From contig JBBQRQ010000027.1 in the NCBI GenBank assembly GCA_038214755.1, forward strand, positions 1 through 51,993: a stretch of 51,993 nucleotides of DNA. The letters are read 5' to 3'. This DNA is from Verrucomicrobiota bacterium. Lineage in GTDB: Bacteria; Verrucomicrobiota; Verrucomicrobiia; Limisphaerales; CANJXF01. The position numbers and the translations under genes were made by a program. The notes below the pieces were generated by a model that worked only from the letters and a program-made list of their open reading frames with translations, was not told the DNA's origin and searched no databases. Below are positions 38,644-43,540 of the stretch, in pieces; the stretch's first letter is position 1; every line of letters begins with the position of its first letter.

Positions 38644-39342
38644 ATGAATTTTTCCGCGAACTTGATTTCCATTCAAACACGGATCGAGGCCGCCTGCGCT
38701 CGTGCCGAACGCAACCCTTCTTCCGTCACGTTGCTCGCCGTCAGCAAAGGCCAACCGCCCGAAATGATTCGAGCCGCCGCCGACGCCGGATTGTCTTTAT
38801 TCGGCGAAAGCAAAGTGCAGGAAGCAAAAGTAAAAATTTCTTTGTGCCCAGGAAAACTTCGCTGGCAAATGATCGGCCATTTGCAATCCAACAAATGCCG
38901 CGACGCCGTTCATTTTTTTGAAATGATTCAGAGCGTCGATAGCTTCTCACTCGCGCAGGAAATCAATAAATTTGCGACCGCCGCCGCCAAGACGATGCCG
39001 ATTTTACTTGAGGTAAATGTGGCCGGTGAAGCGAGCAAGTTCGGTTACGCGCCGGAAAAATTATTGGCCGAGTTGAAAGAAATCAACGCACTGCCCCGAA
39101 TTGAAATTCACGGCCTAATGACGATTGCTCCATACGCGGAAGACCCGGAAAAAGTCCGCCCGATTTTTCGCCGCTTGCGTGAAATAAAATTGGAGTGCGA
39201 ACAAATCCTGGGCGCGCCGCTGCCGCAATTGAGCATGGGCATGAGCGGCGATTTTGAAATCGCGATTGCAGAAGGATCGACGCTGGTGCGAGTCGGCACC
39301 GCATTGTTCGGCGCGCGACAGAAGCTCCGCAAAAGCGAGTGA
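38644..39342 (+). CDS. yggS: Pyridoxal phosphate homeostasis protein
   Basis: LAVSK, FGESKVQE, IGHLQSNK, LSMGMSGD, VRVGTALFG. Confidence 0.95.
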   Translation: MNFSANLISIQTRIEAACARAERNPSSVTLLAVSKGQPPEMIRAAADAGLSLFGESKVQEAKVKISLCPGKLRWQMIGHLQSNKCRDAVHFFEMIQSVDSFSLAQEINKFATAAAKTMPILLEVNVAGEASKFGYAPEKLLAELKEINALPRIEIHGLMTIAPYAEDPEKVRPIFRRLREIKLECEQILGAPLPQLSMGMSGDFEIAIAEGSTLVRVGTALFGARQKLRKSE

Positions 39343-39369
39343 GATAGAAAAGCTGAGCGGTTGCTTTTA

Positions 39370-39583
39370 ACCCGAACTCCGAAACTGGAATGGGTAGCAC
39401 AGGCGACCCGCCTGTGCCATCCGGCCACTGGCCGGACGGAATGGGAAGGATGTTGGCCCAGGAAACCGACGCACGGAAAAGTTCGCACGCTTTCCCCGTT
39501 CCGAGCGGCGGGGTCGGCGCTCGGCACAGGCCAGTGGCCTGTGCTACCCGCGGCAACGGCCACCTCTACTTCGGAATTCGAGT
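39370..39583. mobile_element. MITE-like element (ACCCGAACTCCGAA TIRs, TTA flanks) enclosing a GTAG REP doublet (39392-39549)
   Basis: TIRs ACCCGAACTCCGAA / TTCGGAATTCGAGT; TTA on both sides; inner GGGTAGCACAGGC...GCCTGTGCTACCC. Confidence 0.7.
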
Positions 39584-39830
39584 TTAACAGGCGGCTATTT
39601 TCTTTCGCTTCCACCAGCGGAGAGATTGAACGAGGACGAATCCTCCGCCGAAAATCCCAAGGGCCATATTCACCGGTTCAGGGGTGCCGCTCATTTCCAT
39701 GCTCCAGCTATCGAGCGCGGCTGTTCCTCCTCCATCCACATCAGAAATAAATAACGTCCAGGAACCGGATGCCACGTGCCCGCTGAACGCTGCCAGCCCG
39801 TGGCCGCTGTTCGGACTTGCGACTTCGTCA
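39584..39830 (-). pseudogene. 3' remnant of a PEP-CTERM surface protein (P-domain-like C-terminus)
   Basis: ...GLAAFSGHVASGSWTLFISD...LDSWSMEMSGTPEP, then a TM helix and RWWKRKK; no signal peptide or N-terminal part; degenerate REP half at 39841-39875. Confidence 0.7.
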
Positions 39831-40009
39831 CGGAGATTTCCAATCCCCCGTCTCGCGGATTCTCCAATCGGCAGACGGTGGAATGTTCCAAACCCTGCCG
39901 GTTAGAACAGGCGCTCCGGCTCAAAGGCAAAAGCCAGGTTCAAACGGTCCATTCGAATTCTTCAATTGCCTGCGTATGAGGTTTGCACAATATTCCCGCC
40001 TCGTTTTTT

Positions 40010-43000
40010 ATGCGCCGACAATATCCATTTCATTTGATCGAACCGAAATGGCAGCAGTTTTGGGAAAAGGAACAAACGTTTCGCGCCTGGAACCCGGGCG
40101 AGAAAATTCCGCAAGGACATCCCTTCGCGCAACGGCATGGCTTGGAAAATAAAAAGGCGGATGCGAATTCTCTTCCGCCAAAATTTTATATCCTCGACAT
40201 GTTCCCGTATCCGAGCGGAGCGGGCCTGCACGTGGGCCATCCCGAAGGCTACACCGCCACGGATATTCTGGCGCGCTACCGACGGGCCAAAGGTTTCAAC
40301 GTTTTGCATCCGATGGGCTGGGACGCGTTTGGTTTGCCCGCCGAACAATACGCCATCAAGACCGGCCAGCATCCGCGCAAAACGACGGAGGAAAATATCG
40401 CGAATTTCAAACGCCAAATAAAATCGCTCGGCTTCAGTTACGATTGGTCGCGCGAGGTCGATACGACTGACCCAAAATATTTCAAGTGGACGCAGTGGAT
40501 TTTTCTGAAGCTTTACAATTCCTGGTTCAATCCAGAGACCAATAAAGCAGAGACCATGGAAACGCTTCGTTTTCCGCCTAAACAAAACATGACGGAAGCA
40601 GACAAACGCGCCTATCGCGACTCTCAGCGTCTTGCTTACGTCGCCGAGGCACCCGTGAATTGGTGCGAAGAACTCGGCACCGTGTTGGCCAACGAAGAAG
40701 TCATCGACGGCAAAAGCGACGTCGGCGGATTCCCTGTGGTTCGCAAACCGATGCGCCAATGGATGCTCCGCATCACCGCCTACGCCGAACGTTTGCTCAA
40801 CGATTTAGAAGGAATTGATTGGAGTCACTCGCTCAAAGAAATGCAGCGGAACTGGCTTGGGCGCAGTGAAGGCGCGGAAATCGCCTTTGAGGTTCGGCAC
40901 AATACCTTTGATTCGAAGGAACGCGAATTCTTCCATGACACGCATTGGCTGACTGTCTTCACGACACGGCCGGACACTCTTTTCGGTGCGACTTACATGG
41001 TGCTCGCACCAGAACATAAAATCCTTTCGCAAATCACGACACCCAAACAGAAAGAAGCCGTCGAAGATTATAAATCGTTCGTTTCTGGAAAATCTGATTT
41101 GGAACGCACGGAACTCGCAAAGGAAAAAACCGGCGTTTTCACAGGGGCTTACGCGCTCAATCCAGTGAACGGCGAAAGAATTCCCATCTGGATTGCTGAC
41201 TACGTTTTAGCGAGTTATGGCACCGGAGCAATCATGGCCGTGCCGGCACACGACACGCGCGACTACGAGTTCGCCACAAAATTTAATTTGCCAATTCTCC
41301 AGGTTGTCCAGCCGCCCAACCCAAAAACAGATTGGCGAGGGTTTGTTGACGAAGGCATTTCAGTAAATTCCAGCGGCCCGGAAATTTCGATCACCGGGCT
41401 TCCCACCACCGAAGCCAAAAAGAAAATCACCGACTGGCTCGAAGCAAAAAGTCTCGGCAAAAAAACCATTAACTACAAACTGCGCGACTGGCTTTTCAGC
41501 CGTCAGCGTTATTGGGGCGAGCCGTTCCCGATTGTCTGGAAACGCGATCAAGACGGAAAACTTTTTCACGAAGCGGTGCCGGAACATTTACTGCCAGTTC
41601 GTCCGCCGAATTTGGACGACTATAAACCCACGTCTGATGGTCGTCCTCCTTTGGCGCGCGCGACGGATTGGGTCAAGCTGGCAAATCATGTGGAACGGGA
41701 AACCAATACGATGCCGCAATGGGCGGGAAGCTGTTGGTATTATTTGCGCTATCTCGACTCTCAAAATTCTGCGCGGCCCTGGAATAATCTTGTGGAAAAA
41801 TATTGGATGGGAACGCTGGAGCCACGCCTTCCTGAGTCGAACCAGGAAATAGACAAAGAGATCAAACGCGTGGTGGACGCTGCGATTTTTTCTCCGCGTC
41901 ATTCGCGCAGGACAGCAATAATTGGTCGAGTTCCCAAAGCGGTCGCGGCCATGGCGTTTCAAGTGTCAGGATTAAATATTGAAGATTATTTTTTCCGCCT
42001 CGATAGCTACGGAGTTCGACATGCTTTTCTGCAACATAAAGTTGAAGCATTTGAAAAGCCTCGCGGGCAACGCGCTTTGGCAGCGGAAGATTTTTACAAA
42101 TTACCCGCCGTTTACGCCGCGCCTGATCACATCGAAGACGGTGGGATAAATCAGTTAGGACGGCGCGTCCTTCGATTCCACAAACGCATTAACGGAATTG
42201 CCATTGTGGCGGAAGAAGTTCTTACCGGAATAAAATGTCTGGCGTTACAGACGATGTTCGTCCGAGAAACTGCGGGAGATGAGTTGCAACCGGCGAGAGA
42301 TACCGCCATCGGGGTCTCTCTCTCAACGGCCGATACCGACCGGTCTGAGGAAAAGTTTATCTCGAAAAATTCTCCTGTCAACCAACCGACTCTCGGCGTC
42401 GATCTCTACGTTGGAGGAACCGAGCACGCCGTTCTGCATCTGCTTTACGCGCGCTTCTGGCACAAAGTTTTGTTCGATCTCGGCTACGTCTCGACGCCCG
42501 AACCGTTTTTCAAACTCGTCAATCAAGGACTCATCCTCGGCGAAATGGAGTTCTATATTTTTCGTGATAAAAATGGCGAACGCGTAAGTGCGGCTGGAAT
42601 TGTCGATATTGAAGACGCTGCGGAAACACTCGTTGGCAAAGAGAAAGTTACTGGCGCAAAAGTTGTCGCTCACAAAATAGATGCGAGCGAAGTCGAAAAA
42701 AGAGGGGCTTTTTTCTGTTGGAAGAATCCAGACCTTGACATACGCGTCGATTTTCGTTGCTTCAAAATGTCGAAGTCGCGCGGCAACGTCGTGAATCCCG
42801 ACGACGTTATGGGCGAATACGGCGCGGATGCGTTTCGCCTTTACGAAATGTTCATGGGCCCGCTCGAAATGGTGAAGCCGTGGAACACAAAAGGCGTGGA
42901 AGGCGTTTACCGTTTTCTCGGTCGCGTCTGGCGTTTGTTTGTCGATGAAAAAAGCGAAACGGAATTTGAACAGGCGGAATCAACCACCGAGGCGCAGACC

Positions 43001-43540
43001 CACCGAGAGTTGTTGGAAAAAATTCAATTGAGCGCGGCGATCAAAGACGTTCCCGCTTCGCCGTCGCAACTCAAAGCGCTTCACGCCTGCATCAAAAAAG
43101 TCACGGAAGATTTGGACGCCTTGCGTTTCAACACCGCTATTTCCGCGCTGATGGTTTTTGTCAACGACGCGATTTCGTGGGAAACGAAACCGGTTTCCGG
43201 GTTGCGCGATTTTTTGATTTTGCTCGCGCCATTCGCGCCCCACTTGTCCGAGGAAGTTTGGCAAAAGCTACAGAACCCACGCCATCCGCAATCTGTCTCG
43301 CTCTCCTATCACCCCTGGCCGGAATTCGATCCGGCCGTGCTCATCGAGGACACATTAGAGATTCCAGTGCAGGTGAATGGCAAACTGCGGGATCGCTTGA
43401 GAGTGGCGGCGGGTGCAACCCGGGAACAACTGGAGGCGGCTTCATTGGCCAGCGAAAAAATCAAATTTTTTCTGGAAGGAAAAGCAGTAAAGAAAATTGT
43501 TATCGTCCCAATGAGATTGGTGAATATTGTGTTGGAGTAA
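40010..43540 (+). CDS. leuS: Leucine--tRNA ligase with a large internal insertion
   Basis: [62 protein letters not shown]; 1176 aa, longer than typical. Confidence 0.97.
41813..42394 (+). other. In-frame inserted domain in LeuRS resembling a PBECR (BECR-fold) ribonuclease
   Basis: Lies between YWMG and GVDLYVGG; motif [12 protein letters not shown]...RGQRAL..ED...P.V...PD.I..GG.N..G...L.F.K..NG...AEEV.TG...LALQTM. Confidence 0.7.

Follow-up and report, generated by a model that had tools for sequence, protein, structure and literature searches.

What is a domain of the toxin type doing inside the only leucyl-tRNA synthetase (LeuRS) of a bacterial genome? The question is raised by a stretch of 51,993 nucleotides from a member of the Verrucomicrobiota (order Limisphaerales; assembly GCA_038214755.1, contig JBBQRQ010000027.1, positions 1 to 51,993 of the forward strand), hereafter the window. 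Its gene leuS carries 194 additional in-frame residues, initially annotated as a phage Barnase-EndoU-ColicinE5/D-RelE-like (PBECR) ribonuclease domain. We found that the insert is a complete module of the PBECR3 family, that the residues predicted to be catalytic are retained, and that homologous inserts occupy the identical LeuRS site in 17 other complete loci and in two loci truncated by contig ends. We lean, by a slight balance of probability, towards a host-captured and still catalytic PBECR3 RNase, tethered to a tRNA-binding enzyme and probably serving in genetic conflict. The features of the gene around the insert are as follows.

40010..43540, forward strand: leuS, bacterial-type leucyl-tRNA synthetase (TIGR00396 leuS_bact, 957.1 bits against a cut-off of 548.4)
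40229..40240, forward strand: HVGH, the HIGH class I catalytic-site signature (read from the sequence; invariant in a 17-sequence LeuRS alignment)
41771..41812, forward strand: the 14 LeuRS residues directly upstream of the insert (their '[PG]W' form follows the insert subtype, not the genus)
41813..42394, forward strand: in-frame insert of 194 residues, a complete PBECR3 module (translation, Pfam and predicted structure)
42395..42430, forward strand: Rossmann-fold strand with which LeuRS resumes, abutting the insert (invariant in the LeuRS alignment; aligns to VDQYIGGIEHA of solved LeuRS)
42764..42778, forward strand: KMSKS signature (read from the sequence)

The host enzyme is intact, as had been claimed for it. 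The open reading frame (ORF) at 39983..43540 on the forward strand is open for 1185 codons and begins with a TTG at 39983; the ATG at 40010 is the likely true start, judged from the N-terminal MRRQYPF as in relatives, and gives a product of 1176 residues. With its score above the equivalog cut-off, the HIGH and KMSKS signatures and a CP1 editing domain (PF13603, 205 bits in a Pfam scan), this product belongs to the bacterial LeuRS family TIGR00396. It is also the single match above that cut-off in the genome from which the window comes (G000, 97% complete), so the fusion does concern an essential enzyme, and the insert-bearing protein, as the sole copy, must charge tRNA-Leu. The same holds in five of the six genomes checked for it, where the insert-bearing leuS is the only copy over the cut-off (G000, G012, G709, G542 and G491). 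In the sixth, G525 (7.9 Mb, 2% contamination), the insert-bearing leuS lies on contig C78 and a second, insert-less leuS at C5:134885-137422, which may be a true paralogue or contamination.

The insert begins right after ...EKYWMG of LeuRS, and translation of the interval gives exactly the residues quoted in the initial annotation. Solved bacterial LeuRS, in the printed alignment, read 'YWG-AVDQYIGGIEHA' at this site, with zero intervening residues, and insert-less LeuRS of the same order have 6-37 low-complexity linker residues there, in line with the expectation that only a few residues normally stand at this point. That the insert is a normal conserved LeuRS region of the phylum was rejected, as no such insert was found in the solved LeuRS that matched or in 400 sampled genomes elsewhere in the phylum. 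An intein was rejected as well: the insert ends in ...NQPTL followed by Gly, without the His-Asn plus Cys/Ser/Thr of a splice site, and the Pfam scan gave no Hint or intein family, as the absence of intein hallmarks noted at the outset would predict.

A chimeric contig joining leuS to a phage gene is a natural suspicion in a metagenome-type assembly of 175 contigs, and we give it virtually no chance. The frame is continuous, and G+C is even over both junctions (0.49-0.52). A contig built separately, from run X1, spans 41400..42464 and thus bridges both junctions with 0 differences and a flat depth of 23.7, which answers the junction check proposed initially. Since run X1 may be the source sample, this support is not independent; independent support comes from the insert at the same site in 19 other genomes and in several metagenome proteins from other sources. 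On these grounds a mis-assembly was refuted. A candidate insert-free form of this leuS in run X1 was also dismissed, because the skips of ~645 bases sit on short contigs of 85% likeness, which were read as the LeuRS of other organisms.

The family assignment, made at first by recognition of a residue pattern, was upheld by profile search. PF18812 (PBECR3) matched the insert alone with 37.7 bits (E 2.1e-9, gathering score 30) over insert residues 50-152; the score was 33.6 bits within the whole LeuRS and 38.6 bits in the genome scan, and sister inserts reached 61.0 bits (G007) and 68.2 bits (G012). The insert is the only PBECR3 match in G000, and PBECR3 was found in 0 of 14 control genomes. Searches of the insert against PHROGs gave nothing better than E 0.3, and those against NCBIfam no family.

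The structure of the insert was predicted from a 47-sequence alignment, comprising 17 LeuRS inserts and 30 short proteins from a search of representative proteins, and the resulting model had a predicted local distance difference test score (pLDDT) of 86.4 and a predicted template modelling score (pTM) of 0.75. The model and the Pfam match divide the module into the following parts.

41813..41959, forward strand: N-terminal extension of the module, with helix 10-26, strand 34-39 and helix 42-52 (pLDDT 89-98 over residues 1-50)
41960..42268, forward strand: PBECR3 core, BECR fold (PF18812 match and insert model)
42020..42022, forward strand: codon of His70, predicted catalytic (present in all 20 LeuRS copies and in 155 of the 166 other PBECR3 domains)
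42035..42037, forward strand: codon of His75, predicted catalytic (kept in 20/20 LeuRS copies and 166/166 others, 186/186 in all)
42251..42253, forward strand: codon of Thr147 in the last strand, predicted catalytic (all 20 LeuRS copies have Thr; of the 166 other domains, 160 have Thr or Ser)
42269..42394, forward strand: disordered C-terminal tail (pLDDT below 50 for residues 163-184)
42320..42352, forward strand: tail motif, the window's version of 'TSETLR' (pattern T[SPA][EDG][TNA][LHDFP])

The modelled core consists of strand 60-64, helix 65-75 with Arg69, His70 and His75, two more helices, and strands 106-112, 118-126, 129-137 and 142-152 (pLDDT above 90), the last of which carries Thr147; in the BECR fold, a helix precedes a sheet of four or five strands. 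The N-terminal extension lies outside the Pfam model, yet it belongs to the unit of the phage and polyvalent homologues, whose matches start at profile positions ~15-20. The initial description of the insert as flanked by linker-like segments therefore held at one end and failed at the other: the last ~40 residues are disordered, whereas the first ~50 are confidently folded (pLDDT above 90).

In a VIA-align search of 48,161 chains, 11 of the 12 best PDB neighbours of the insert model were toxin chains and the remaining one was a ParDE entry. BECR/RelE-type RNase toxins stood at the top (Z 4.6-6.9, root mean square deviation 2.8-4.6 A over 72-101 residues): BrnT (Z 6.9), the Salmonella toxin 7vd7 (6.3), RelE (5.2), the EF-Tu-dependent tRNase CdiA-CT NC101 (5.1), two further CdiA-CTs (5.0 and 4.9), colicin D (4.7) and CdiA-CT Kp342 (4.6). 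Every one of these Z values is below 8, a range that can reflect a common arrangement, so the fold evidence backs the sequence assignment and does not stand alone. Foldseek gave no match against the PDB at E <= 0.001, and its top rows were unrelated NTF2-like folds.

According to Iyer et al. 2017 (PMC5512222), the PBECR active site combines a His of the N-terminal helix with a C-terminal Thr or Ser, and the retained set of the insert agrees with this configuration on both counts; the RNase activity of the PBECR3 family itself is a prediction. A 2026 preprint (10.64898/2026.08.28.747851) assigns PBECR3, colicin D and CdiA-CT EC869 to one 'colicin-like' group. The three residues predicted to be catalytic, whose loss would have pointed to an inert domain, are thus retained in all 20 LeuRS-embedded copies, as are Glu81, Gly85 and Pro98, and Lys124 and Asp105 are kept in 19/20. 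Pairwise identity among the copies is otherwise only 22-60%, with one pair at 98% as the exception. Judged from these residues, the insert is probably an active RNase.

Substitution rates told a similar story. The ratio of nonsynonymous to synonymous rates (dN/dS, Nei-Gojobori) was 0.19-0.46 for the insert in 11 divergent pairs, against 0.07-0.25 for the LeuRS flanks, values that are rough because dS is saturated in most pairs. At dS near 1 the ratios of insert and flanks were similar (for instance 0.21 and 0.19-0.23 in L058/L060), and the near-identical pair L059/L061 gave an uninformative 1.04 from very few changes. The dN of the insert was up to ~2.5 times that of the flanks, with about twofold faster evolution than in the rest of LeuRS. 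Taken together, these rates indicate that the insert is maintained by purifying selection. With the catalytic residues intact in 20/20 copies, they disfavour a decaying or inert passenger: a selfish or near-neutral cassette, lodged in a permissive loop, spread by recombination of leuS alleles and serving no cellular function, would not be expected to hold dN/dS well below 1 across long divergence or to keep its catalytic residues invariant at such low identity.

A different non-catalytic role would be that of a domesticated RNA-binding module which helps the enzyme to hold tRNA-Leu or some other RNA, for example in place of the leucine-specific domain. In PMC5512222, the inactive PBECR of the phage Mu MuF protein is proposed to bind RNA, and 16 of the 18 insert-bearing LeuRS lack the leucine-specific domain, the exceptions being L072 and the window itself:

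42542..42763, forward strand: leucine-specific domain of 74 residues, directly before KMSKS and separate from the insert (sequence comparison)

Unlike the inactive MuF copy, however, the insert keeps the predicted catalytic His, His and Thr. Moreover, most insert-less relatives also lack the leucine-specific domain; with both domains in the window and neither in these relatives, the insert does not track its loss, and we consider an RNA-binding helper improbable. The five same-genus LeuRS of G001, G004, G005, G007 and G008, and most of the order, have LILGEDGQKMSKS alone in place of the leucine-specific domain, which among the order's LeuRS examined was seen outside the window only in G022, G023 and G495 (L072). 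Its scattered occurrence implies a second mosaic site in leuS of this order, one that varies independently of the PBECR3 insert.

How widespread is the insert? With the insert itself as query, weak matches were obtained in LeuRS-sized frames of 2 of 60 relatives, both above the PBECR3 cut-off. A profile of four inserts matched in 24 of the order's 401 sampled genomes. The window and 17 other loci carry the insert at the identical site (186-210 residues), and two more are LeuRS-embedded and broken by contig ends, which brings the LeuRS insert to 20/401 genomes (~5%). The alignment with relatives, which the initial annotation had proposed for delimiting the insert, thus placed it at the same site in all 18 complete loci and showed short linkers in insert-less relatives. 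The remaining matches in the order were a free-standing protein, a 4282-residue frame of polyvalent size, and matches that were weak or lay in other contexts. Elsewhere in the phylum, an even sample of 400 genomes gave a profile match in 10, none of them at a locus with LeuRS motifs. Within the genus of the window, only G000 and G007 had an insert match and six other genomes had none. Metagenome protein sets added more insert-bearing LeuRS, with inserts 48-85% identical to one or other type. A contig search with the single insert of the window found no relative, and a search with a three-sequence alignment of its subtype returned two named records.

Several side observations belong to this survey. 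Public annotation calls the insert-bearing enzymes just 'class I tRNA ligase family protein', and one such record is titled Akkermansia muciniphila yet clusters with this order; the generic name looks as if the insert had defeated the naming, and the title is probably a mislabel. The free-standing PBECR3 protein, of 271 residues (L014/L056, G010:C5, ORF 1171..1986 of L014), lacks the conserved 'E..RG' segment of the family, and the LeuRS of its genome, G010, has no insert. By eye, the LeuRS of one relative (P0006) shows two copies of a ~30-residue segment, 'GQASRLS..K..S.K.GDRRDACPT', in different variable loops (~205-235 and ~445-475), and the segment recurs near the N-terminus of P0004; the P0006 segments look like translated in-frame copies of a short dispersed DNA repeat.

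In a FastTree phylogeny of 186 PBECR3 domains, the 18 inserts and the two LeuRS fragments fell on one side of a branch with support 96, which favours a single capture of the module into LeuRS, with the qualification that a profile of the inserts themselves had selected the comparison set and that the tree method is a quick one. The LeuRS backbone was treated separately, in a tree of 36 rows from which the insert, the 14 upstream residues and the leucine-specific domain were left out. Its rows are unevenly sampled, the insert-bearing ones from the 400-genome scan and the insert-less ones from the 24 nearest relatives, and for this reason no frequency is drawn from it. The backbone tree follows taxonomy, and insert presence is scattered over it: 11 changes are counted on the best tree, and branches with good support force at least 7. 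The insert tree disagrees with this backbone: approximately unbiased (AU) tests rejected four backbone groupings (p 2e-61 to 6e-5), the groups having been picked once the backbone tree and the identity matrix were known. Family f16 alone contains four insert subtypes and one insert-less gene, and between G000 and G007, of the same genus, dN is 0.13-0.15 in the flanks and 0.93 in the insert.

The window's insert clade has 6 members, and 5 of them, from four families, show the '[PG]W' form directly upstream of the insert; Phe occupies that site in 12/12 other insert-bearing and 18/18 insert-less LeuRS; such co-variation of flank and insert subtype is as expected for homologous recombination that carries a short flank along. 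The motif [ES]TL[DNRH], picked post hoc, occurs in 4 of 18 insert-less linkers, a count reached in 0 of 5000 shuffles, and hints that some of these linkers are deletion scars of the tail. (G009 is one insert-less row in the linker, flank and backbone-tree comparisons; no conclusion rests on it.) Overall, the comparison of the two trees indicates that inserts have been lost repeatedly and swapped between leuS alleles against the species tree. The patchy presence, the lateral movement, the scar-like linkers and the tolerance of the loop for 6 to 37 residues in relatives are what a passenger cassette would produce. Against such a cassette stand the selection and invariance described above, and neither a mobility gene nor terminal repeats were seen at the junctions; we therefore regard it as unlikely.

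The same patterns bear on what the module might be for. Fast divergence, presence/absence polymorphism and allele swapping together are the pattern of conflict genes and suggest a role in conflict. They weigh against the alternative of housekeeping RNA processing or quality control, in which the module would trim, clear or regulate a cellular RNA, for example damaged or mischarged tRNA-Leu or the leuS transcript. Physical coupling to a tRNA-binding, editing-competent enzyme and purifying selection on the insert would suit such a task, and the absence of an immunity gene, detailed below, fits a benign specificity. However, ~95% of the species of the order do without the insert, including 6 of 8 same-genus genomes, and its rapid divergence and lateral exchange are not those of a housekeeping part, so we rate this explanation as rather improbable.

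Where did the module come from? Searched against representative proteins, the four-insert profile found 4092 at E <= 0.001, 2287 at <= 1e-10 and 122 at <= 1e-30. Among the 150 best of these, 71 were covered by a Pfam scan, and PBECR3 was carried by 71/71. About half had partner domains of phage or polyvalent proteins (MuF_C, ART-PolyVal, InPase, DarA_N, portal, Mu-like protease, ddrB-ParB, LPDs, lysozyme, Zeta toxin and RadC), and most of the others had PBECR3 alone. The exceptions were two LeuRS fragments (P0021 and P0043) and a family-2 glycosyltransferase (P0025). Since the profile matches span positions ~15-180, the mobile unit is ~165 residues long and exceeds the 115-position Pfam model. 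The tail motif (typically TSETLR), a pattern picked after being seen, occurs in 18/18 LeuRS inserts and in 59/166 non-LeuRS PBECR3 domains. In P0025 (526 residues) the module lies in mid-enzyme, at residues ~122-313, with the 'TSETLR' tail kept and Ser in place of the catalytic Thr; by its domain arrangement this protein is a second case of a PBECR3 module nested in a housekeeping-type enzyme. The recurrence of module and tail motif in an unrelated enzyme is one more point that a passenger cassette would explain.

The course of events that we favour would then run as follows. In an ancestor belonging to this verrucomicrobial order, a surface loop of LeuRS would have received, in a single capture, a full PBECR3 module from the polyvalent effector proteins of phages or conjugative elements; the module is predicted to be a metal-independent endoribonuclease with the BECR fold. 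The tethered RNase would be held beside an enzyme that binds every tRNA-Leu, where it would cut tRNA or other RNA near LeuRS, or act when triggered, with a role in conflict such as defence against phages or mobile elements. The parts of this proposal differ in strength. That the insert serves conflict rather than housekeeping is a tentative view, held somewhat short of even, and that its target is tRNA near LeuRS is more doubtful still.

The surroundings of the gene set limits to this proposal. In leuS only LeuRS domains stand beside the insert, so the protein is not itself of the polyvalent type, and leuS has no adjacent cognate immunity gene of the kind that defines a toxin-immunity pair. 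Within ~6 kb, no neighbour family besides leuS recurs in more than 2 of the 8 insert-bearing loci, and no phage genes were noticed around leuS in reading the ORF sequences, the neighbours not having been searched against databases. The disordered tail does not dock onto the domain in the insert model, which speaks neither for nor against autoinhibition by the tail. Directly after the loop comes a strand of the second half of the Rossmann fold, and the far end of this strand (GGTEHA) borders the active site; the general architecture of the fold suggests that the insert leaves the enzyme on the side opposite the catalytic pocket and hangs on flexible tethers.

A number of results weigh against a captured, catalytic RNase at work in conflict. 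No linked immunity gene for the insert was evident within ~6 kb of the 8 loci, and an always-on tRNase within the sole LeuRS would harm its own cell. G000 has five ordinary tRNA-Leu genes, three of which were compared: they are 97-100% identical in four insert-less members of the genus, and in G007, which has a different insert, two are 93-99% identical and the third has a best match of 76%. With near-identical tRNA-Leu in insert-less relatives, the presumed substrate bears no sign of adaptation to the insert. The frequent loss of the insert implies that it is dispensable. The model of the full-length LeuRS was poor (mean pLDDT 60, pTM 0.39), and no claim on the position of the insert relative to the active site or the tRNA path is drawn from it. 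To these come the limits already given with the results: the low Z values and the Foldseek negative, the saturated dS and the uninformative ratio of L059/L061, the uneven sampling of the backbone tree and the choice of AU groups after inspection. The absence of a linked immunity gene, together with the dependence of the cell on the protein, means that any activity must be narrow or conditional.

One conditional arrangement would make LeuRS::PBECR3 a synthetase-embedded immune module, an 'integrated decoy' through which infection halts translation and is aborted. On infection, the tethered RNase might cut tRNA-Leu, of the host or encoded by the phage, as presented by LeuRS; alternatively, a peptidase of a phage polyvalent protein might cut at the 'TSETLR' boundary motif, freeing the RNase and splitting LeuRS. 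We offer this elaboration as speculation with a small chance of being correct.

Upstream of leuS, the preceding gene ends at 39342, and the G+C-rich gap of 640 bp contains a dispersed intergenic repeat of ~185-230 bp at 39365..39590. BLAST of this interval against the genome gave up to 39 overlapping matches with 82-92% identity, in both orientations and on many contigs. An Rfam scan of the whole window returned 0 families, none for this repeat, and a tRNA scan of the window 0 genes; the ORFs listed over the repeat (e.g. 39361..39750) are probably spurious.

Aminoacyl-tRNA synthetases are among the most conserved enzymes, and to our knowledge those of bacteria rarely gain new domains. Both the PBECR3 family and LeuRS are known; the nesting of one in the other was not found described, as no relevant paper on PBECR3 or BECR domains within LeuRS or another synthetase turned up in the openly searchable literature. 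If the module is active, it would tie tRNA charging directly to RNA cleavage, a new architecture for defence or stress control, and would constitute a natural experiment in keeping a potentially lethal enzyme harmless inside an essential one. A comparison set is at hand, since nature supplies ~20 alleles, in about six subtypes, as well as numerous deletions and close insert-free genes, and the LeuRS inserts could offer a first tractable handle on what PBECR3 domains, as predicted RNases, cut.

Set beside known systems, the locus combines familiar parts in an unfamiliar way. The LeuRS backbone of the window is that of an ordinary bacterial enzyme. Around the site, relatives of this order without the leucine-specific domain match 3ziu best (E 8e-66), the Mycoplasma mobile LeuRS, an enzyme without the editing domain. 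LeuRS tolerates gain and loss of peripheral modules; none of the solved LeuRS that matched, however, has residues at the insert loop, and the insert has a toxin-type nuclease fold rather than that of a tRNA-handling or editing domain. With inteins it shares a fixed in-frame site in an essential gene, patchy occurrence, lateral spread and co-transfer of a short flank. Inteins, however, splice, whereas the insert has no splicing residues, Hint domain or homing endonuclease and must stay in the mature protein. The predicted fold resembles that of the tRNase toxins colicin D (Z 4.7) and CdiA-CT of NC101, Kp342, Y. kristensenii and S. marcescens (Z 4.6-5.1), and some of these toxins depend on a tRNA-carrying partner, EF-Tu, as the titles of 5i4q and 7vmc indicate. 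No sequence similarity of the insert to colicin D, colicin E5 or CdiA-CT was detected; these toxins are secreted and have an adjacent immunity gene, which leuS lacks, and tRNA cleavage by PBECR3 is hypothetical. The closest likeness is to the PBECR3 domains of phage and conjugative polyvalent proteins and of MuF and portal proteins, as described in PMC5512222. They are of the same sequence family as the insert, and the polyvalent copies share with it the ~165-residue unit, the N-terminal extension, the 'TSETLR' tail and the His/His/Glu/Lys/Thr set. The LeuRS copies nevertheless form a clade of their own, apart from the phage and polyvalent ones, and whereas the known PBECR3 domains reside in multi-effector proteins that are delivered by virions or transferred, the insert resides in the catalytic domain of an essential chromosomal enzyme.

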